The notes under the pieces were generated by a model. It had not been told where the DNA came from. It saw only the letters and a program-made list of their open reading frames with translations, and did not search any database. Shown here piece after piece: positions 3,101 to 61,957 of a stretch of DNA of 64,000 bases. Source of the stretch: Dehalococcoidia bacterium (lineage in GTDB: Bacteria; Chloroflexota; Dehalococcoidia; Lucifugimonadales; UBA3495); the NCBI GenBank assembly GCA_963664375.1, contig OY761449.1, positions 2,026,877 to 2,090,876 on the forward strand, written 5' to 3'. Within the stretch, counting starts at the first letter, position 1. The number at the start of each line of letters is the position of its first letter. A program made the translations under genes and the position numbers.

Positions 3101-3832
3101 ATGACCACCAAGAAGGTACTCAGACCGCAAATTGAGGAATACGCACACCTTGAACCGTTGCCCGACCCGCCGAAAGAACCGGATATGCAGCAGCGATTGA
3201 GCACCATGGCCATCGACAAGGTTCTGGGGCTTCACTTCGCCCGCCGCGACGACGTATTGATTTGTGGCGACGGATACCTGCGGCGCGAGGCAGGCAATGA
3301 GTCCGAACAACTGGCCCCCGATTGCGTAGTGACCTTTGGCGTCAACCCCGATGGCATTGTGGCCCGTAACGGGTACGTCATCAGCGAGGTGGGCAAGCCG
3401 CCGGATTTCGTGCTGGAAGTGGCATCCCGCAGCACAGGCCGCCGTGACTACACCGTTAAACGGGATGGCTACGCCGCCTACGGCGTGCAGGAATACTGGC
3501 GCTTTGACCGTTCCGGCGGACGCTTCCACGACGCTCCGCTGGCTGGCGACACGCTGGCGGATGGGATTTACGAACGCCTGCCAATACACCGGGAGCCGGA
3601 CGGCTTGCTGTGGGGATATAGCGCGGTGTTGGACCTGGAAATTTGCTGGGACCGGGGCGAGCCAAGGTTCCGCGACCACTACACTAAGCAGTTCCTCCCC
3701 ACCCCGGAAGAGGAGCGGGACAGGCGGGAGGCTGCCGAATCCGAGCGCGATGCTGCCGAATCCCGCGCCGACGCTGCGGAAGCTGAGGTAGCGCGGCTCA
3801 GGGAGCAACTTCGGCGGCTGACCGACCAGTGA
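3101..3832 (+). CDS. Uma2 family (DUF820) PD-(D/E)XK endonuclease
   Basis: PDCVVTFGV...GYVISEVGKPPDFVLEVASRST...EYWRFD is the typical Uma2 core, with a charged coiled-coil tail. A paralog lies at 38204-38920. Confidence 0.85.
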   Translation: MTTKKVLRPQIEEYAHLEPLPDPPKEPDMQQRLSTMAIDKVLGLHFARRDDVLICGDGYLRREAGNESEQLAPDCVVTFGVNPDGIVARNGYVISEVGKPPDFVLEVASRSTGRRDYTVKRDGYAAYGVQEYWRFDRSGGRFHDAPLAGDTLADGIYERLPIHREPDGLLWGYSAVLDLEICWDRGEPRFRDHYTKQFLPTPEEERDRREAAESERDAAESRADAAEAEVARLREQLRRLTDQ

Positions 3833-52721: not shown

Positions 52722-54023
52722 TTACTTGGCGTCCATCATCCTGACCCAGCCGGAATAGAAGCCCCTGGCGTTCTCCTCGCAGATACCCTCGGTGAGCACG
52801 CCGGGGAGGTCCACGTCCTCAGCGAAGTGACCGATACCCATCTGATAGTTGTAGGGCTTGCGGCGGGCGATGGCGCCCCGGCTGGCCTTGTGGGCGTAGT
52901 TCCAGTTCTCCATGTCGTCCTGCTCGGTCATCCCGCCCGGCCCGGAGTAGCGGATGTAGTAGTGGCGCAGCACGTCCTTAACCTCTTCCGGCGTGTCCTT
53001 GTCCACCAGGAACCAGCGCCAGGCCTCCGTCAGGTTCGGCCCCCGCGGGTGCCACACGGCGATGGAGCGCGGCTGGCGCGCCAGGTAGGACATGTTCGGG
53101 AACACGGTGCCCACCACTCCCAGCAGGTTGGTCTTGCCGTCCAGACGGCGGCGGCGCTCCGCCTCCATGTAACGGAAGTACTCGCCCACGTCCGCCGTGT
53201 TTTGGAAGGTGGCAATCTGCGGCGTTTCCGGCGGGAACAGTTCCACCACGGCGGCATGACCGCGCCCCGGCATTGAGACATTGATGCGTTTCCCCGCCTT
53301 GTACTCGGCGTCGTCCCTGCGCCCCACTCCGCTGGGGCCGATGCCCACCAGGTCCACCGAGCGGTGGCTGATGTTGTGGTAGCCGTCCCCGGCGAAGTTC
53401 TCGGCGGCGAACTTCCAGTTGTTGGGCATGGTCCACTTCTGGACGCCGCCCAGAATTTCCGAGCCGCCCTCGCTGCCGTCCCGCCCGTCCATCAGCAGGT
53501 CGAGGTAGAGGGTGAAGTCGCCCACGTATTCCTGGAACGATGGGCCGTCCTTGTCCCACGATGCCCAGATGCCGCCCTTGTAGTTGTGTATCTGCGGCAC
53601 CTCGATGAGGCCCCACTGCGACTTGTCCAGCGCGCCCTTGTAGGCGTCCTTGAAGTACGGCACGCCGACCAGCTTGCCGTCGGTGGCGAAGCTCCAGCCG
53701 TGGTAGGGGCAACTGAACACCGGCGTGTTGCCCTCGTCGTAGCGGCAGACCTTCATCCCGCGGTGGGTGCATGAGTTGAGGAAGACGTGAATTTCGCCCT
53801 CGCGGTCGCGGCAGAGGATGACCGATTCCTCGCCCATGCTGGACACGAAGTAGTCGCCGGGCTTGGGAACCTGGGTCTCGTGGCCCACGAACAGCCAGGC
53901 TTTGGAGAACACCTGCTCCTGTTCCTGGGCGTAGATATCCTCGTTGATGAATATCTCGCGGCTGATCTGGCCGCCGTCAAGGTCAACAATGCTGCCCAGC
54001 GTCCGGCTAGTCGTCGTCGCCAT
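52722..54023 (-). CDS. Rieske-type aromatic ring-hydroxylating dioxygenase alpha subunit (copy 2, no adjacent beta)
   Basis: Same Rieske and catalytic motifs as copy 1. ATG 54023 follows ggggag. Confidence 0.92.
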   Translation of the reverse strand: MATTTSRTLGSIVDLDGGQISREIFINEDIYAQEQEQVFSKAWLFVGHETQVPKPGDYFVSSMGEESVILCRDREGEIHVFLNSCTHRGMKVCRYDEGNTPVFSCPYHGWSFATDGKLVGVPYFKDAYKGALDKSQWGLIEVPQIHNYKGGIWASWDKDGPSFQEYVGDFTLYLDLLMDGRDGSEGGSEILGGVQKWTMPNNWKFAAENFAGDGYHNISHRSVDLVGIGPSGVGRRDDAEYKAGKRINVSMPGRGHAAVVELFPPETPQIATFQNTADVGEYFRYMEAERRRRLDGKTNLLGVVGTVFPNMSYLARQPRSIAVWHPRGPNLTEAWRWFLVDKDTPEEVKDVLRHYYIRYSGPGGMTEQDDMENWNYAHKASRGAIARRKPYNYQMGIGHFAEDVDLPGVLTEGICEENARGFYSGWVRMMDAK

Positions 54024-54162
54024 TGGCACGCTCCCCGCCAAGTCTCAGTTAACGCAAAGTATACACGATAACGGCGCTCGGAACGGAAGCAGGGGCCGAA
54101 GCTGAATTGCGGGGCCGCGCCCGCCCCGTTTAGAATGACATGGACGGCAGCAGGAGAATCCG

Positions 54163-54852: not shown

Positions 54853-54972
54853 CGGCCGCTGTACTCAGGCAATTTGATGACACTTGCTTGTTTACAGGTT
54901 CAGCGCTTGACGCTAGCATCCGGATATGACCATTCAGATTCAGAATCAAGCGCCGTAGCGCAAGGCTGATTG

Positions 54973-56346
54973 ATGACTATTACCGCTACAAATACCACAG
55001 AGGCCAGAGACAGCTTGCACAGACGTTTCGAGGAGCGAATCTTAGCCAATCCATCTCTAAGCCGTAGGTTAGTATCCTATCAAGGTAACAAGAAAGTTCC
55101 CGGGTTGCGCTGGCTGAAGTACAAAGAGGGATTCTCTGCCGACTTGGTTCGGGGACTCTTGGATGCTACTGATGCCAAGACTTTCCTCGACCCTTTTTCC
55201 GGCAGCGGCACCGGCCCTCTTACCGCTGGCAGCATGGGTATGGATGCTACGGGCATCGAAGTCATGCCTGTCGGAAATCTGCTGGCTCGTTCTATCTCGG
55301 TAGCTTCCAATGGGTTGCGGACGGAAGATTTGTGCGAGGCGGCAGGAGGGTTTCTTCAAACGCTGGAAGGCAATCAATTTAGTCCAGCTATGGCGTTCCC
55401 TCACGTACCTATCACGAAACACGCCTTCCCCCAAGAGACTGAGAATGAGTTGGCGAAAGCTAGGGAATACTTGAGCAGGGTAACCGATAGTTGCCTGCGC
55501 ACGGTACTTACCCTTGCCTGTGTGAGCGTTCTGGAGGAAATCAGTTACACCCGCAAGGATGGACAATTTCTCCGCTGGGATCCTCAATCCGGACGGGACG
55601 TAAAGCCCAAGCTGCACAAGCCAATCCTTCCGAGTCTTTCAGATGCGTTCAGCCGACGGATTAGGGAAATCGTCGACGACCTGCCAGCGCTAAAAGCCAA
55701 GTACGGTGGGACTGTCCCAAAGTTCATAGAAGGCTCCAGCCTGAATGAACTCCAAAATCTGCCCGGCGCGAGTTTTGATGCGGTTGTAACCTCTCCGCCC
55801 TATGCCAATCGGTATGACTATACCAGAACGTATGCTCTTGAGTTGGCGTACTTGGGGTACGACTCGGATGGACTGAAGGAACTGCGGCAAACCCTGCTGT
55901 CGGCGACCGTCGAGAATAAGTCGAAGCGGGAATTGTTAAAGCGCAGATATGGCAGCTTGGAAAACGCCAGCTTCGCCATTGATATGGCAGACCATCAGCC
56001 AGCATTGCAAGAGGCGTTAAATGCCCTGAAGGCGGAAGCGGGCAACCTGAGCAATCGCAACGTCATAGACTTGGTGGAAAATTATTTCACCGAAATGGCC
56101 CTTATAGTCGTTGAACTCGCACGGCTGGTTTCACCAGGGGGCCACGTTTTTATGGTGAATGACAACGTCCGATACCACGGCGAGGAAATTCCGGTTGACC
56201 TAATCCTGTCTGATTTCGCGGAGCAATGCGGGTTCCGCTGCGACTCCATTAGGACGCTCAATAGAGGCAAGGGCAATTCCAGCCAACAGATGGGCCGTTT
56301 CGGGCGACAAGAACTGCGAAAGTGCGTGTACCTCTGGAGGAGGTAA
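54973..56346 (+). CDS. DNA methyltransferase (N6-adenine or N4-cytosine; SPPY type)
   Basis: Motif I FLDPFSGSGTG and motif IV VVTSPPYANRYDY. G+C is visibly lower than in the flanks. Confidence 0.85.
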   Translation: MTITATNTTEARDSLHRRFEERILANPSLSRRLVSYQGNKKVPGLRWLKYKEGFSADLVRGLLDATDAKTFLDPFSGSGTGPLTAGSMGMDATGIEVMPVGNLLARSISVASNGLRTEDLCEAAGGFLQTLEGNQFSPAMAFPHVPITKHAFPQETENELAKAREYLSRVTDSCLRTVLTLACVSVLEEISYTRKDGQFLRWDPQSGRDVKPKLHKPILPSLSDAFSRRIREIVDDLPALKAKYGGTVPKFIEGSSLNELQNLPGASFDAVVTSPPYANRYDYTRTYALELAYLGYDSDGLKELRQTLLSATVENKSKRELLKRRYGSLENASFAIDMADHQPALQEALNALKAEAGNLSNRNVIDLVENYFTEMALIVVELARLVSPGGHVFMVNDNVRYHGEEIPVDLILSDFAEQCGFRCDSIRTLNRGKGNSSQQMGRFGRQELRKCVYLWRR

Positions 56347-56347
56347 A

Positions 56348-57301
56348 GTGGTTACCCCGGATTCTCGCCTGGAAGAATCAAGGCAAAGAGCATTGGCAAT
56401 TTCGGATGCCATCCGGCGGCGGCCCGATGAAAGCGTCCGCGAGAAAATTCGGGGATACCCCGAGCCATTGGAGTTTGCCAGCCGCTTGGAGGATTTGGCG
56501 ATCGCGGAAGAGGCTTGGGAGCACATCGTTCAGACACAGATCGACCCGAAATTGGTCTTTGCACACCCTGACCTTCTGCGGGCACATCCTGAAACCTCTC
56601 TTCATTATCGAGGAATCGCCACGTTGTCTCTTAAGAGGGTTCAGGCAATGGCTACTTCAGTAAGCAGGTGGGAGGACGGGAGCTTGCGCCGCGCCCCAAC
56701 TTTGGAAAGGTGTACTTCCGTTGCACGCACTTACAATGCCGTAATTTCTGTGGTGGTCACTGGGACTGACGGATGGGCTTTGGAAAACGGATACAGGAAC
56801 GTACTGGCGACAATCGGCATTACCGAGGATGGTTCCCTGAGAAATCTTGTCGGGCAGCAAGGGGAGGCTGCTGTCAAGGATGGCATCATCAAATGGTTGA
56901 AGGATGCTGGTGCGGCTGCTCACCCGCGTTTTGAGGGAGCGACTACGATTCTTGGGGAACCTGGGCGCTTCCGTATGGTTTTCGGTTCCGAACCTGACAT
57001 TAAGTTCGAGAGCCAGAACGATGAGGGAGCATGGCAAATCGTTTCTACCGTGGAGATAAAGAGCGGTACCGACCCCGCTGGCGCATTAGAACGGTTGGGT
57101 GCGATTCAGAAGAGTTTCGACCAGACACCTGCCCGGTCCCGTAATTTCGTTGTGCTGGGTATCGTAACCCCCGCTATGCGGTCCCGCCTAGATGAATTAA
57201 ATGTCACCAGGGATTTCCTGCTTTACGACCTTCTAAACGACTCCGAAGCTTGGGACGCCTTCGTTGCGGAATTGTTTCATCACACCCTTCGCATAATCTA
57301 A
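56348..57301 (+). CDS. putative type II restriction endonuclease (PD-(D/E)XK-like)
   Basis: It starts 2 nt after the methyltransferase stop. SEPDIKF...STVEIKSGTD fits PD...(D/E)xK. I half-recall XcyI-family similarity but cannot verify it. Confidence 0.55.
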   Translation: MVTPDSRLEESRQRALAISDAIRRRPDESVREKIRGYPEPLEFASRLEDLAIAEEAWEHIVQTQIDPKLVFAHPDLLRAHPETSLHYRGIATLSLKRVQAMATSVSRWEDGSLRRAPTLERCTSVARTYNAVISVVVTGTDGWALENGYRNVLATIGITEDGSLRNLVGQQGEAAVKDGIIKWLKDAGAAAHPRFEGATTILGEPGRFRMVFGSEPDIKFESQNDEGAWQIVSTVEIKSGTDPAGALERLGAIQKSFDQTPARSRNFVVLGIVTPAMRSRLDELNVTRDFLLYDLLNDSEAWDAFVAELFHHTLRII

Positions 57302-57462
57302 CCAGTTTGCCGTGTATGTGTAATCGACCTAGCTGGCCGACACCGACCACAACCGCGCAATCCTGGACTGGCGGGTTATTGGGGACTTGATAGAGTTCTG
57401 CCGCCGACAGCGACAACGGCCTGAACAGCACTTTGGTGCAATCCAGACAACAGGAGCCTGAT

Positions 57463-57861
57463 ATGACTTCTCCCGCGACGGAGCCGCCGGAAACCGGGGA
57501 CGCTGTGGCCGACCACCGGGCGCGGGCCGCTTATTTCTTGCAAAAAGGAAGGGAGTATCTGGCCGAGGGCGACTTGCATCAGGCGTCCGAAAAAGGCTGG
57601 GGAGCGGCAGCGCACATGGTCAAGGCCTTCGCTGCGTCTTACGGGCTGACCTACGAAAGCCACGATGAGTTTGACCACGTGCTGGAGCAGGTGTCGGTGC
57701 TGGGGAGAAACGAGCGGATTCATGATTTGGGCAACTCTGCCCAATATCTGCACCGCAATTATTACAAACGCAAGATGTTTCTGAAATCGGAACCTATCCA
57801 GCGTAATTTGGACAATGTAGCGGAACTAATCGGGTTGCTGTCGCCTCTGTGCCGGAGCTAG
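57463..57861 (+). CDS. PaREP1-like (HEPN-superfamily) protein
   Basis: YFLQKGREYLAEGDLHQASEKGWGAAAHMVKAFA ... YLHRNYYKRK. ATG 57463 follows caggag. Confidence 0.62.
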   Translation: MTSPATEPPETGDAVADHRARAAYFLQKGREYLAEGDLHQASEKGWGAAAHMVKAFAASYGLTYESHDEFDHVLEQVSVLGRNERIHDLGNSAQYLHRNYYKRKMFLKSEPIQRNLDNVAELIGLLSPLCRS

Positions 57862-57977: not shown

Positions 57978-59036
57978 CTATGGCCGGGCTACCGCCAGGC
58001 ACTTGCTGGAGTTGTGGACGTAGGTCTGCTGGAACTCGACGATTTCGGGCGTGCGGTTCAGTTCCGACAGCGCGCCGGCGAGGCACATCCAGTTGAGCAT
58101 CTCCTGCTGCCCGGCGTCCTCGACCTGCGCCGTGGTCAGCCCGCGCCACGCCTCGAAGTCGCCGGCCTTGAACTCCTCGAACCTGGCCCGGTCGGAGTCC
58201 ACGTCGCAATACAGCCACCAGTTCTTTTCCGTCAGGAAGGCGTGGGACCAGCTTGACGACGCGATGATCGCCACGCGCCAGGGGCTGGCTTGCAACGCCC
58301 GGGCCGCGGCCGCGCCCAGCTCCATGCAGCGTTTGGGCGACGGGCCGGGCGGGTCGGCGGGTGCCTCGACGCCGTTGACCGTCTGTGTCGTGGCGCCGCC
58401 GCGGTTGCGGATGACGCGGCTGCCGTAGCAGTTGATGGCGAAGGGGATCACCGGATAGTCGAAGCCGATGCGGTCGTAGTCCAGGTAGAGCAGCGTGTTC
58501 AGGAAGGCGTGGCCCAGCCCCGGCTCGTGCAGCGGCTTGTAGGCATAGGCCACGTCGAAACCGTCGTCGATCAGCGCCCCGGCCAGGTACCGCGCCGACG
58601 GGTGCCCGCTGTACCGGAAAGTCTTGTCCGCTGGCTCGCCCCACACGTTGGGCCGCGTCCCGCCGTCCTTGGTGGCGAAGGGACGGCATTCGTACTCCCC
58701 GTGGGCCATCACGCAGAAGGTGGGGATGATGTCCTCTTTGAAGTTCTCGTACTGGTCGTCGCCCCAGACCAGCACCACGTCGGGGTTGAAGGCGTCCAGT
58801 TCCGCCCGAACCTTGCGGAATCCGGCCACCAGCTTCTCCCGCTGGAACAGCGCGGAGGAGTAGCCCTCGTCGTCGCCCCATTCCTTGCGCATTGCGTCCG
58901 GCCAATTCTCCGGGTTCTTCCGCTCGCTGGGGATGCGGTCGTTCCTCAGCGCGCGGGTCAGCGAATAGTTCTTAAGCTCGTCCGGCGCGATCAACGACGG
59001 CGAATGCGTAACGCCAATGCCCAGTATCTCTGCCAT
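57978..59036 (-). CDS. class III extradiol dioxygenase (LigB superfamily)-like protein
   Basis: GVTHSP near the N-terminus, GHAF, and ASSSWSH, as in LigB-type enzymes. ATG 59036 follows caggagg. The family call is tentative. Confidence 0.55.
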   Translation of the reverse strand: MAEILGIGVTHSPSLIAPDELKNYSLTRALRNDRIPSERKNPENWPDAMRKEWGDDEGYSSALFQREKLVAGFRKVRAELDAFNPDVVLVWGDDQYENFKEDIIPTFCVMAHGEYECRPFATKDGGTRPNVWGEPADKTFRYSGHPSARYLAGALIDDGFDVAYAYKPLHEPGLGHAFLNTLLYLDYDRIGFDYPVIPFAINCYGSRVIRNRGGATTQTVNGVEAPADPPGPSPKRCMELGAAAARALQASPWRVAIIASSSWSHAFLTEKNWWLYCDVDSDRARFEEFKAGDFEAWRGLTTAQVEDAGQQEMLNWMCLAGALSELNRTPEIVEFQQTYVHNSSKCLAVARP

Positions 59037-59079: not shown

Positions 59080-59649
59080 TTATACCCCGGAATCTCGGTC
59101 TCTACGCCGAATCGAGTCAACAAGTGGCTGATCTACTCTGTAGTGTTCGTCAACCTCCTCCAGGAGTTCGCGGTGGCAGTTCGCCCCGTGGAATAACTTC
59201 ACGACTACCCCTTCGCTCTTGGCTGCCTCAATTGCCGGGATAAAGTCGCTGTCGCCAGCAATCAGAACGGCTTGCTGAATGTGGCCATTGGCCGATAATT
59301 TGACCAGGTCCACCGCCAGCAGGATGTCCACCCTTTTTTGCTCTGTTACAGGGGAGCCGTCATCTCTGGTTCCCCGCCGTTCTACCCTCCCCAATTTCAC
59401 GGTGTATATCGGGAGCAGTTTCAGCGCGGAAAAGAACTGCCGTTGTCGGTTGTAGAAGGCGCTCTCCCGGGTCGTGGGAGGGTCGCTCCGATAGGGGAGT
59501 GATGAATAATAGTAAGTCCTGATTAGATTGGTTCCCAAAGTTAACTTGCTGGGAAGCAATCCAAAGTTGACCCGCGCATCCCCGAACTCATTGCGCAGCA
59601 CATTGAAGAGGTAGGCACCGTCAATGAAAATCGCGGATCTCTCTGGCAT
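59080..59649 (-). CDS. NYN domain (LabA/DUF88-like, PIN-fold) ribonuclease
   Basis: AIFIDGAYL, VDILLAVDL and IAGDSDFIPAIE acidic motifs are all intact. ATG 59649 follows taggggg. Confidence 0.85.
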   Translation of the reverse strand: MPERSAIFIDGAYLFNVLRNEFGDARVNFGLLPSKLTLGTNLIRTYYYSSLPYRSDPPTTRESAFYNRQRQFFSALKLLPIYTVKLGRVERRGTRDDGSPVTEQKRVDILLAVDLVKLSANGHIQQAVLIAGDSDFIPAIEAAKSEGVVVKLFHGANCHRELLEEVDEHYRVDQPLVDSIRRRDRDSGV

Positions 59650-59662
59650 TAGCGCCCCCTAC

Positions 59663-59695
59663 AAAATGGAAAAGGGGCCGCGGTATCACGACCCC
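59663..59695 (-). terminator. intrinsic terminator between the tandem repeats and the NYN start codon
   Basis: Minus strand: GGGGTCGTG-atac-CGCGGCCCC (9-bp stem including 2 G-U pairs) followed by TTTTCCATTTT. It ends 13 nt before the ATG. Confidence 0.7.
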
Positions 59696-59703
59696 ATTTC
59701 TGT

Positions 59704-59814
59704 GTAACCTGACGTGAGTGGCCGCTCGGGGCGAACCGGCGGGTTGACGCCAGGGAGGATAGTAACCTGACGTGAGTGGCCGCTCGGGGCGAACCGGCGG
59801 GTTGACGCCAGGGA
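59704..59814 (-). ncRNA. two 100% identical 53-nt direct repeats (58-nt period); candidate repeat-RNA (type III antitoxin-like) or cis-regulatory leader
   Basis: Units 59704-59756 and 59762-59814 are identical base for base. Each folds (minus strand) as CCUGGCG/CGUCAGG enclosing the hairpin CCGCCGG-uucgcc-CCGAGCGG. They lie downstream of a strong promoter and upstream of a terminator. Confidence 0.55.
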
Positions 59815-59869
59815 ATTTTGTCGCCCGAACGTGCGCTGACGCCCAACGTCCGAGTGTCTAGACATTTGT

Positions 59870-59899
59870 ATATTACCATCCTCAGGCAACACTGGTCAA
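59870..59899 (-). promoter_or_regulatory. sigma70-like promoter driving the repeat/NYN unit
   Basis: Minus strand: TTGACC - 18 nt - TAATAT. Confidence 0.55.
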
Positions 59900-59999
59900 A
59901 GTCCTGGCGCTGGGTCAACTTGCCCGCCCCGTCCGTTTGCGGCGATAATGGGCCGCAAATCCCGACCGCGATTCGCACACGCACCGCAGGAGGCAGCTT

Positions 60000-60818
60000 A
60001 TGGACTGGGGAATGGCCAACCGTATGGCGCAGCTTGTTCAATCCGACGGGAAGTGCATGTTCCTTCCCGTTGACCACGGTTACTTTCAGGGGCCGACCCG
60101 CAACCTGGAGCGGCCGGGCGAGACCATCGCCCCGCTGATGCCCTACGCCGACGCGCTGTTCGCCACCCGCGGCGTCGTCCGCTCCGTCGTAGATCCGGCC
60201 GACACCAAGCCGCTGATCCTGCGCGTTTCCGGCGGCACCAGCATGACCGCTGGCGACCTCGCCGACGAGGACGTGACCACCTCCATGGAGGACGCCATCA
60301 GGCTGAATGTCGCAGCCGTTGGCATTTCCGTGTTCATCGGCTCCGAGTACCAGAAGCAGTCCATCATCAACCTCGGTCGGCTGGTCGACGAAGGGGAGCG
60401 CTACGGCATCCCGGTCATGGCGGTCACCGCCGTGGGCCGCGAGCTGGACCAGCGGGACTCGCGCTACCTGGCCATGGCCTGCCGCATCTGCGCCGAAATG
60501 GGCGCCAAGGTGGTCAAGACCTACTGGTGCGAGGACGGCTTTGACCGCGTGGTCGACGGCTGCCCCGTGCCGGTGGTGATGGCCGGGGGGCCGAGGGCGG
60601 AAACTGAGCGCGAGGTGCTGGAATTCGTTCACGACGGCATGCAGAACGGCGCCATAGGGATCAACCTTGGCCGCAACATCTGGCAGAGCCCCAATCCCGT
60701 GCCGATGATTCGCTCCCTGCGTCACATCGTCCACGGCGGTGGCACTGTGGCCGAGGCGCAGGAAGTCTTTGAATCAGCCCGCGCCGGTACCGCCGAGCTG
60801 GTCGGCGTCTCGGACTGA
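60000..60818 (+). CDS. class I aldolase, DhnA/LsrF/ADH-synthase family
   Basis: LPVDHGYFQGP, a Schiff-base Lys context (GAKVVKTYW), and GINLGRNIWQ. Confidence 0.88.
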   Translation: MDWGMANRMAQLVQSDGKCMFLPVDHGYFQGPTRNLERPGETIAPLMPYADALFATRGVVRSVVDPADTKPLILRVSGGTSMTAGDLADEDVTTSMEDAIRLNVAAVGISVFIGSEYQKQSIINLGRLVDEGERYGIPVMAVTAVGRELDQRDSRYLAMACRICAEMGAKVVKTYWCEDGFDRVVDGCPVPVVMAGGPRAETEREVLEFVHDGMQNGAIGINLGRNIWQSPNPVPMIRSLRHIVHGGGTVAEAQEVFESARAGTAELVGVSD

Positions 60819-60840
60819 GTCCTTTTCCACCTTCCATTTC

Positions 60841-60878
60841 CCCTCCCCATCAGGAGGAGGGCTAGGGTGGGGGTGAAT
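60841..60878. repeat. REP-like element (family 1)
   Basis: cccctccccatcaggaggagggctagggtgggggtgaa. Confidence 0.8.
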
Positions 60879-60928
60879 CCCCCCGCAATCGAAAACCTGC
60901 GTAATCCCCAACGCCGAGGCCAGCAGTC

Positions 60929-61957
60929 ATGCGCGTAGCCATGTACTACAACAACAACGACGTCCGCATCGAGGAAATGCCTCGTCCAGAGATCGGTCCC
61001 GACGAGTTGCTGCTCCGGATCGACGCCAGCGGCATTTGCGGAAGCGACGTCATGGAGTGGTACCGCATCCAGCGCGCGCCAGTGGTGCTGGGACACGAGG
61101 TTGCCGGGACCGTGGTGCAGGTCGGGCGCGAAGTAACCAAGTTCCGCGAGAACGACCGCTTGGTTGTAACCCATCACGTTCCCTGCAACGCCTGCCGCTA
61201 CTGCCTCAGCGGCAGCCACACCGTCTGCGACACCCTGCGGGCCACCAACTACGACCCCGGCGGGTTCTGCGAGTACGTGCGCCTGCCGGCCATCAACGTT
61301 GACCGCGGAGCCATTCCCATTCCTCGCGGCGTCACCTTCCCGGAGGCGTCCGTCGCCGAGCCGCTGGCCTGTGTTTACCGGGGCCAGCGCCGCGCCAACC
61401 TCCAGGCCGGACAGTCAGTGCTGGTATTGGGCAGCGGCCTGGCCGGGCTGCTTCACATAAACCTCGCCCGCGCGGTTGGGGCTGGACGGATAGTGTCAAC
61501 CGATCTTTCCGATTTCCGGCTGGAGGCAGCCCGCAGTCTGGGCGCCGACGTCACCTTGAGGGCCGACGAATACACCCCCGACCTGCTTCGTCAGGTCAAC
61601 GACGGGCGACTGGCCGATCTCGTGATTGTCGCCACCGGGGCCCGCCCCGCGTTGTTGCAAGCCCTGGAATCGGTAGACCGCGATGGCACGGTGCTGTTCT
61701 ACGCCCCCACCGAGCCGGGCGTCGAGGTTCCGGTATCCATCAACGACGTTTTCTTCCGCAACGGAGCCACGCTCACTACCACCTACGCCGCTGCTCCCGG
61801 CGACCTTACCACGGCTCTCGACCTCATCGCCTCGGGCCGGGTGCAGGTTGGGGAAATGATCTCCCACCGTCTCCCGCTTGAGGAGACCGGGCTGGGCTTT
61901 AAGCTCACGGCCAGCGCCACCGACTCGCTGAAGGTGGTGATCCAACCGCACCGCTGA
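60929..61957 (+). CDS. zinc-dependent alcohol/polyol dehydrogenase (MDR family)
   Basis: GICGSDV, GHEVAG, CxxCxxCxxxxxxxC structural zinc site, GSGLAG Rossmann. Confidence 0.9.
   Translation: MRVAMYYNNNDVRIEEMPRPEIGPDELLLRIDASGICGSDVMEWYRIQRAPVVLGHEVAGTVVQVGREVTKFRENDRLVVTHHVPCNACRYCLSGSHTVCDTLRATNYDPGGFCEYVRLPAINVDRGAIPIPRGVTFPEASVAEPLACVYRGQRRANLQAGQSVLVLGSGLAGLLHINLARAVGAGRIVSTDLSDFRLEAARSLGADVTLRADEYTPDLLRQVNDGRLADLVIVATGARPALLQALESVDRDGTVLFYAPTEPGVEVPVSINDVFFRNGATLTTTYAAAPGDLTTALDLIASGRVQVGEMISHRLPLEETGLGFKLTASATDSLKVVIQPHR

Follow-up and report, generated by a model that had tools for sequence, protein, structure and literature searches.

Type III toxin-antitoxin (TA) loci carry tandem RNA repeats of 34-45 nt, which fold into pseudoknots and which the toxin processes into single units; it arrests growth unless neutralised through direct binding of the RNA, and abortive infection is often the outcome. 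Ribonucleases can also be governed by their own messengers: RNase III, RNase E and PNPase limit their own synthesis through the rnc, rne and pnp leaders, and Regnase-1 does so through a stem-loop in its own 3' untranslated region (UTR). For the LabA-like NYN proteins and for the NYN RNase of Bacteroides fragilis, we know of no description of a cognate RNA element. The function of bacterial LabA-like NYN proteins was listed as unknown in a 2017 survey of PIN-like domains, and roles in transfer RNA (tRNA) or ribosomal RNA (rRNA) processing have been proposed for bacterial NYN proteins from genomic context (PMC5499597). The CRISPR-associated NYN protein of B. fragilis is a robust, sequence-nonspecific, Mn2+-dependent single-strand RNase (bioRxiv 10.1101/2024.04.08.588522). 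In Clostridioides difficile, the abiF motif RNA RCd22 neutralises the adjacent AbiF toxin in cis as well as in trans (bioRxiv 10.1101/2025.04.15.648962). The present analysis concerns a 64,000-nt stretch of DNA from a Dehalococcoidia bacterium (assembly GCA_963664375.1, contig OY761449.1, positions 2,026,877 to 2,090,876), hereafter called the window, and within it a minus-strand locus in which two identical 53-nt repeats precede a gene for a LabA-like NYN ribonuclease. These repeats are two homogenised copies of a conserved RNA hairpin, of which a third, decayed copy is also present; the hairpin is proper to one subfamily of stand-alone NYN/LabA-like proteins of about 185 amino acids (aa). 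Both the RNA motif and the RNA-nuclease pairing are new, and literature searches returned no description of a NYN-associated RNA motif.

The locus shares with ToxIN, CptIN and TenpIN the gene order promoter, non-coding RNA, intrinsic terminator and endoribonuclease gene. It further resembles type III TA systems in being a self-contained two-part module whose RNA is specific to the adjacent nuclease, and in presenting this RNA as near-identical tandem units, both in the window (two identical units and one degenerate) and in about 13 other arrays. However, the nuclease has a NYN/PIN-like fold and not that of ToxN/AbiQ, CptN or TenpN, and its RNA unit, about 28 nt long (53 nt in the window), is a plain hairpin rather than a 34-45-nt pseudoknot. 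Array processing cannot be essential for the NYN module, since most loci have a single unit; the array is optional and is not what defines the family. The initial annotation, made from the letters of the window alone, had proposed a possible type III-like TA or defence module with a NYN RNase; the module-like evolution reported below fits this proposal, whereas toxin family and RNA fold place the locus outside the three known groups. The module is type III-like in logic and is not, by ancestry, a member of ToxIN, CptIN or TenpIN.

Its nearest counterpart in spirit is the abiF motif with AbiF, where the motif was likewise found by its position upstream of one nuclease-like toxin family and occurs in one or two copies. 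AbiF is however Abi_2/HEPN-like, and the abiF RNA has a different fold, which Rfam includes and which had no match here; RCd22-AbiF is moreover prophage-borne and rests on experiments, whereas the NYN module is known from sequence. A further resemblance is to the leaders through which RNase genes regulate themselves: the rnc, rne and pnp 5' UTRs and the Regnase-1 stem-loop are structured elements within a nuclease's own messenger RNA (mRNA), co-evolving with the enzyme and presumed to be its target. Those enzymes are essential or global housekeeping RNases of stable orthology, whereas the NYN gene is sporadic, duplicated and often pseudogenised, and unlike the rnc, rne and pnp leaders, the NYN hairpin has a terminator after it and, in some cases, a promoter of its own. 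With the LabA-like NYN proteins (PF01936, COG1432, 2QIP) and the B. fragilis enzyme, the protein shares its domain and the conserved acidic active-site residues; its subfamily differs in consisting of minimal single-domain proteins with a leader RNA of their own.

A word-indexed protein search yielded 677 homologues at E <= 1e-5, those listed being about 160-250 aa long. Scanning a single genome for each species confirmed 216 places, of which the best 80 were kept as loci L001 to L080. The hosts of these 80 were mostly Dehalococcoidia metagenome-assembled genomes, accompanied by Planctomycetota, Caldisericota, Saccharimonadales, Gemmatimonadaceae and a few proteobacterial and archaeal bins. 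A covariance model of the hairpin (R1), run on both strands of 548 kb, produced 86 matches, and all those with E < 0.01 were on the sense strand, upstream of a NYN reading frame. Among the 79 loci having upstream sequence, R1 placed a hairpin upstream of the NYN gene in 72, which supports a specific and conserved link between RNA element and NYN genes; the remaining seven held insert-bearing or divergent variants, which were found by pattern or by eye. Three extra strong R1 matches preceded further NYN copies, namely a tandem paralogue (L036), a decayed paralogue (L005) and a NYN gene split by an insertion sequence (IS; L039). Metagenome contigs were also scanned starting from the motif. The pattern used was too permissive, most of its 57 matches being chance occurrences in G+C-rich coding DNA, and it became informative after re-scoring with the covariance model: 10 of the 11 matches of at least 30 bits adjoined a NYN gene or remnant, the sole exception being a chance match inside a rubrerythrin gene (L126). 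The hairpin is near-exclusively associated with NYN genes, and gene and hairpin travel together across phyla. A plasmid or phage origin was considered and rejected, the homologues found there being distant, multi-domain and free of the motif.

The conserved object is a hairpin of about 28 nt, CCUGGYGU...AYNYCAGG, with AU-rich flanks, and not the 53-nt repeat. Units usually measure 26-33 nt. Their consensus is CCUGGYGU-C-CG[loop]CG-C-AYNYCAGG in Dehalococcoidia and CCUGGCGUUCC-UUCG-GGGAUGYCAGG in Planctomycetota and some other hosts, this second type being a fully paired helix of 11 bp with UUCG-type loops. The 47-nt core of the window units combines the 8-bp outer stem found elsewhere with a longer distal stem-loop, which the window shares only with L001-L003. 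Arm spacing ranged from about 10 to more than 100 nt among loci. Large distal inserts were observed in L010 (about 2810-2925, some 113 nt) and L032 (about 2864-2940, 76 nt), the latter holding a partial internal duplication of the 5' arm.

Pairing was evaluated on a MAFFT alignment (A2) of 37 distinct short units, with a helix of 11 pairs, by comparison with 500 shuffles and with slid partners. Paired cells amounted to 87.6%, versus 79.2% in shuffles (none of the 500 reached the observed value) and 27-40% with slid partners. Compensatory changes on both sides were found in 6 of the 11 pairs, for a total of 29 cells, as in CCUAGUG/CGCUAGG, CCCGGUG/UGCCGGG and CCUUUCG/CGAAAGG. C1, C2, U8, the A that pairs with U8 and the closing GG were invariant in this alignment. 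The pairing picture of a model-fitted alignment of the 86 matches was in agreement, and its G.U or U.G cells numbered 88 against 5 A.C or C.A cells, which argues that the hairpin acts as a sense-strand RNA and not as a DNA palindrome or an antisense RNA. Conservation extended to the flanks, at A(-6), U(-5) and C(-1) on the 5' side and at U(+1), U(+2), U(+5), A(+6) and U(+7) on the 3' side, and included non-canonical positions in the Dehalococcoidia versions (C.C at pair 9; U.U or C.C at pair 6). As a known riboswitch or leader might have accounted for the element, Rfam 15 was consulted: no match reached the gathering threshold in the whole window or in the leaders of 40 homologous loci, and at E <= 10 the window leader had only chance microRNA and small RNA matches (E >= 1). 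The hairpin represents a candidate new RNA family of at least 80 members, supported by covariation and absent from Rfam 15.

In the 260 nt read upstream of each gene, the typical layout consisted of a sigma-70-type promoter, an AU-rich flank, the hairpin, a UURGUAU flank, a terminator, a Shine-Dalgarno (SD) sequence and the start codon. TTGACA/TAnnnT promoters comparable to that of the window were present just upstream of the hairpin in most homologous loci, and the order promoter-RNA-terminator-nuclease, first read in the window, was kept in about 90% of loci. In the window, this layout and the adjacent genes are as follows.

59870..59899, minus strand: sigma-70-type promoter, TTGACC-18-TAATAT, TG-extended, from a consensus scan; predicted start at about 59862
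59824..59854, minus strand: degenerate first hairpin unit, CUCGGACGU...ACGUUCGGG, folding at -17.7 kcal/mol
59762..59814, minus strand: repeat copy 1, 53 nt; hairpin core 59766-59812; R1 match 59757-59820 (27.1 bits, E = 1.3e-6)
59757..59761, minus strand: centre of the 11-nt single-stranded linker UUACUAUCCUC, which carries the conserved UAU, from flank statistics across loci
59704..59756, minus strand: repeat copy 2, 53 nt, identical to copy 1; core 59708-59754; partial R1 match 59705-59754
59663..59695, minus strand: intrinsic terminator, GGGGTCGTG-atac-CGCGGCCCC and a T run; stem 59695-59674, of 9 bp and G+C-rich, with loop AUAC
59655..59660, minus strand: SD sequence AGGGGG, by direct reading
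59080..59649, minus strand: gene for the NYN (LabA-like, PF01936) ribonuclease, 189 aa, by Pfam match; catalytic acidic residues intact
ATG at 59036, minus strand: LigB-type open reading frame (ORF), 43 nt downstream of the NYN gene
60000..60818, plus strand: upstream gene for a DeoC/LsrF-type aldolase, divergent from the NYN locus

The promoter, identical repeats, terminator, SD sequence and intact NYN gene of the initial annotation were all recovered at these coordinates. The two direct repeats are 100% identical with a period of 58 nt; no further copy was found in the 64-kb window at up to 3 mismatches (nor in 100 shuffles) or across the homologous loci, which answers the earlier concern that they might belong to a dispersed repeat. 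In copy 1, the core consists of the 8-bp outer stem CCUGGCGU/ACGUCAGG followed by the lineage-specific distal stem-loop; copy 2 has a lower R1 score because its flank overlaps copy 1. The fold first predicted was reproduced: each repeat forms a hairpin of two stems with an energy of -22.6 kcal/mol (z about -3 to -3.7), a value that none of the shuffles attained. The degenerate unit had no match to R1 at E <= 1; it aligns with a unit of L002, CCUGACGUUGGCCUUCGGCUUCACGUUGGG, which is a clearer positional homologue, and what had been described as a decayed partial repeat in the leader is a real, degenerate third hairpin. The terminator, folded alone, reached -20.3 kcal/mol (z = -5.1). The interval 59650-59999 is a divergent intergenic region, since the gene at 60000-60818 runs on the plus strand. 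A coding repeat, suggested by an ORF at 59686-59892, was ruled out by unit lengths varying by non-multiples of three and by pair covariation.

Tandem repetition had been taken for the defining feature of the locus. This view did not hold: the conserved unit is the simple hairpin, and about five sixths of the arrays have one copy, so that a search of homologous NYN loci for tandem repeats and covariation recovered hairpin, terminator and covariation, but mostly not the tandem arrangement. Two or more hairpins were present in the window, L001, L002, L005 (five), L015, L016, L034, the second leader of L036 (L036#2), L039, L045, L052, L055, L058 and L059. These copy numbers come from leader reading, pattern and R1 matches, a stricter counting script missing insert-bearing units. 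Units within a locus were 0.81-1.0 identical, versus a median best match of 0.71 between loci, and they were identical in the window, L016, L036#2 and L039. Distal-loop differences separate the two window-type units in both L001 and L002, and in L003 one unit was lost through deletion between repeats. Because the L001 and L002 copies have diverged while several loci hold identical ones, the perfect identity in the window reflects recent homogenisation or re-duplication, in line with the concerted evolution or recent duplication put forward initially. Tandem copies have arisen independently in several lineages.

A strict scan detected a terminator-like stem and U run separating the last hairpin from the start codon in 61 of 75 loci; inspection by eye raised the count to about 68 of 75. 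In L071, L072, L075, L077 and L078, the hairpin is kept directly before the SD sequence and there is no terminator. No alternative pairing or arm complementarity between hairpin and terminator was seen by inspection, the only means used, and termination accordingly looks constitutive rather than switched; it would then give a short hairpin RNA in excess over NYN mRNA. Stand-alone hairpins were also encountered. In L052 (2720-3000), one such unit, served by a separate promoter (TTGACG...TATACT) and followed by a stem-loop, sits upstream of a second promoter, which drives a normal hairpin-terminator-NYN leader. In L109 (1-830, the same as L125), a promoter-hairpin-terminator unit at about 150-275 on the plus strand is convergent with a complete NYN gene of 183 aa at 276-827 on the minus strand; this gene has no hairpin of its own and appears co-transcribed with upstream genes. 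The L109 hairpin RNA is, from this arrangement, predicted to be an independent transcription unit.

Pfam PF01936 was the only Pfam match of the window NYN protein (E = 8.8e-17, residues 4-170), and NCBIfam returned only a weak NYN family match. The motifs FIDG, VDILLAVD and GDSDF are intact and invariant among homologues, as are D10, D108, D114, D133 and D135 in 18 homologues. Its AlphaFold2 model had a pLDDT of 92. A sequence search for homologues of solved structure found none; by fold, the sole match was the LabA-like protein 2QIP (E = 2.4e-10, TM-score 0.66-0.76), of unknown function.

About 10% of the NYN copies were disrupted while the upstream hairpin stayed intact. The lesions comprised in-frame stops (L004, L049, L064), 5' truncations fused to the leader (L073, L079), an IS interruption (L039) and frameshifts (L058, L080); to these can be added the decayed paralogue of L005 (1927-2679) and a NYN remnant in L111. 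The NYN gene appears dispensable, and often inactivated with the hairpin persisting. In a subclade of conserved synteny, NYN proteins were 51-85% identical, versus 82-96% for the products of the flanking DeoC-type and LigB-type genes. Tandem NYN paralogues in L036 (3001-4389) and L005 (1927-3549) had about 52-57% identity and a separate hairpin variant each, and three paralogue types (A, B and C) alternate among related genomes at a single slot between the DeoC-type and LigB-type genes, with type-specific hairpin variants. A TA-like module rather than a housekeeping gene would fit these pseudogenes with a kept hairpin, the turnover of paralogues, the stand-alone hairpins and the fast evolution of NYN.

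The LigB-type gene, initially named as a possible co-transcribed partner, was not retained. The order DeoC-type aldolase-NYN-LigB is limited to the one subclade, and NYN and LigB are separated by another gene in L005 and by the second NYN gene in L036. As no other neighbour of NYN is conserved beyond that subclade, and as the hairpin is near-exclusive to NYN genes, leader and NYN gene form a self-contained module to which the LigB link is incidental. On the plus strand of the window, a block at 54970-57861 comprises a type II DNA methyltransferase (54970-56346), an XcyI-like restriction endonuclease (56348-57301) and a PaREP1-family ORF (57433-57861). The block has the LigB-type gene on one side and a Rieske ring-hydroxylating oxygenase (52722-54041, minus strand) on the other. 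The Rieske oxygenase of L039 comes directly after the LigB-type gene, which suggests that the restriction-modification/PaREP1 block is a lineage-specific insertion and that it entered an aromatic-catabolism cluster. On the other side, the interval 60000-61957 (plus strand) begins with a gene matching the LsrF-type 3-hydroxy-5-phosphonooxypentane-2,4-dione thiolase model NF006081 (E = 1e-106), followed by a zinc alcohol dehydrogenase. In L009, a thiamine pyrophosphate (TPP) riboswitch (3646-3759, 65.8 bits) follows closely downstream of the NYN gene, presumably without relation to it.

Taken beyond the initial annotation, the finding is more general, being a family-wide NYN leader hairpin, and less certain in mechanism. 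From the sequence evidence we infer binding of the hairpin by the NYN protein, and likewise inhibition, cleavage and toxicity. The favoured interpretation, at a probability of roughly 0.45, is that the NYN RNase has in this hairpin a cognate RNA partner, made in excess, restraining the nuclease and feeding back on NYN. A single promoter would drive both the hairpin or hairpins and the NYN gene, and the intrinsic terminator would stop most transcripts, leaving more hairpin RNA than NYN mRNA. The protein would recognise the conserved lower stem (C1-G, C2-G, G7-C, U8-A, then a C.C or U.G step) together with the UAU-containing single-stranded flanks. Recognition by the NYN protein itself is suggested by the full pairing of the helix in some lineages, its exclusivity to NYN genes and the paralogue-specific variants, and the conserved stem sequence implies a protein as reader rather than a ligand pocket, since the Planctomycetota-type hairpins are fully paired with UUCG-type loops. 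Binding may restrain an otherwise unspecific single-strand RNase, the hairpin serving as a decoy or antitoxin-like RNA, while in read-through transcripts binding or cleavage could feed back on NYN mRNA. Extra tandem hairpins would provide a higher dose of partner RNA.

Several observations weigh against a restraining partner RNA. No enrichment on plasmids or phages was found, homologues on known plasmids and phages being less than 31% identical, distant, multi-domain and without the motif; a scan of viral contigs recovered one 45%-identical homologue, again without the motif, and one weak variant. PADLOC gave weak hits (HEC-09, 3e-9; NYN, 2e-6), and the sampled NYN neighbourhoods consist mostly of ordinary metabolic genes. 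The most distant homologues (Caldisericota, L077 and L078) have no terminator, stand-alone hairpin genes amount to the two cases of L052 and L109, and some of the NYN frameshifts may be long-read assembly errors. A single sense-strand hairpin 5' of the gene, as in most loci, is equally expected of a cis-acting autoregulatory leader.

Such a leader, purely cis-acting and serving a non-toxic accessory RNase that binds or cuts its own mRNA and thereby limits its synthesis, with no trans neutralisation, addiction or defence, is an unlikely explanation that still deserves attention. It accounts for a structured element in the 5' UTR of NYN that is conserved with the gene, always sense-strand and in one copy in about five sixths of loci, for the hairpins kept before the SD sequence in the five loci without a terminator (L071, L072, L075, L077, L078), for the variant proper to each paralogue and for the mostly ordinary contexts. 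Left unexplained are the stand-alone hairpins with their own promoter (L052, L109), a terminator without alternative pairing to the hairpin, the repeated amplification and homogenisation of hairpins, and the intact hairpins beside disrupted NYN genes. A restraining partner RNA is favoured over a cis-only site because of the constitutive terminator, the recurrent amplification, the stand-alone hairpins, the decay of NYN with the hairpin kept and the spread across phyla; both explanations would have the binding of the hairpin by NYN in common. It is improbable that the hairpin is read by another cellular factor or mimics a cellular RNA such as helix I of 5S rRNA, NYN then being an rRNA-end processing nuclease under mimicry control, comparable to ribosomal-protein leaders. 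Cyanobacterial 5S rRNA begins with UCCUGGUGUC and ends with GACGCCAGGUC. The outer seven pairs of Planctomycetota-type hairpins (L053, L054, L062; CCUGGCG/UGCCAGG, including G.U) are those of helix I in Escherichia coli 5S rRNA, the sequence of which was verified at 100% identity against annotated rrf genes. This resemblance is post hoc, concerns one short stem and was drawn with the E. coli 5S rRNA rather than with those of the hosts, and variants such as CCUUUCG/CGAAAGG (L063) are unlike 5S rRNA. The tRNA or rRNA processing roles earlier proposed for bacterial NYN proteins (PMC5499597) would suit mimicry, but for an enzyme of 5S rRNA processing one would not expect a sporadic distribution, duplication and pseudogenes among about 10% of copies, and no rRNA genes were near NYN in 40 loci.

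A riboswitch for a small molecule or ion, tandem in the window and controlling the downstream terminator, would also present a structured and conserved 5' leader followed by an intrinsic terminator and sometimes repeated, and could make use of the conserved non-canonical positions of the Dehalococcoidia versions. It is nevertheless very improbable, as the element occurs only before NYN genes and never before transport or metabolic genes, the Watson-Crick or wobble-paired UUCG-loop hairpins of some lineages leave no pocket, conservation bears on the helix sequence and not on junctions, no hairpin-terminator antiterminator pairing was seen (by inspection only) and Rfam had no match. The arms do form an imperfect inverted repeat whose copy number changes fast, as would suit an operator palindrome, a repetitive extragenic palindrome (REP)-like repeat, the end of a mobile element or a functionless chance duplication. 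Such a DNA-level or functionless origin is scarcely credible given the 88 to 5 excess of G.U over A.C, indicating selection on one transcribed strand, an arm spacing incompatible with a dimeric DNA-binding site, the lack of dispersion in the window or loci, and the conservation across phyla.

A bolder form of the partner-RNA interpretation would make the window the founding example of a widespread type III-like family, in which an unspecific NYN single-strand RNase acting as toxin is neutralised by an excess of a short, sequence-conserved hairpin RNA from the same promoter, no processed pseudoknot array being involved and paralogue-specific variants preventing cross-talk between co-resident modules; this possibility is less likely than not. 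The motif in any case gives one subfamily of the very numerous bacterial LabA-like NYN proteins a candidate RNA ligand, about 28 nt long, that is both specific and conserved, which makes NYN binding, cleavage specificity and regulation testable by simple assays. Should the RNA neutralise the nuclease, RNA-antitoxin systems would be extended to another toxin fold, to an RNA of far simpler architecture and to the Dehalococcoidia, an environmentally important and poorly tractable class; a NYN toxin would then have a defined RNA partner for the first time, and Dehalococcoidia their first described system of this kind.

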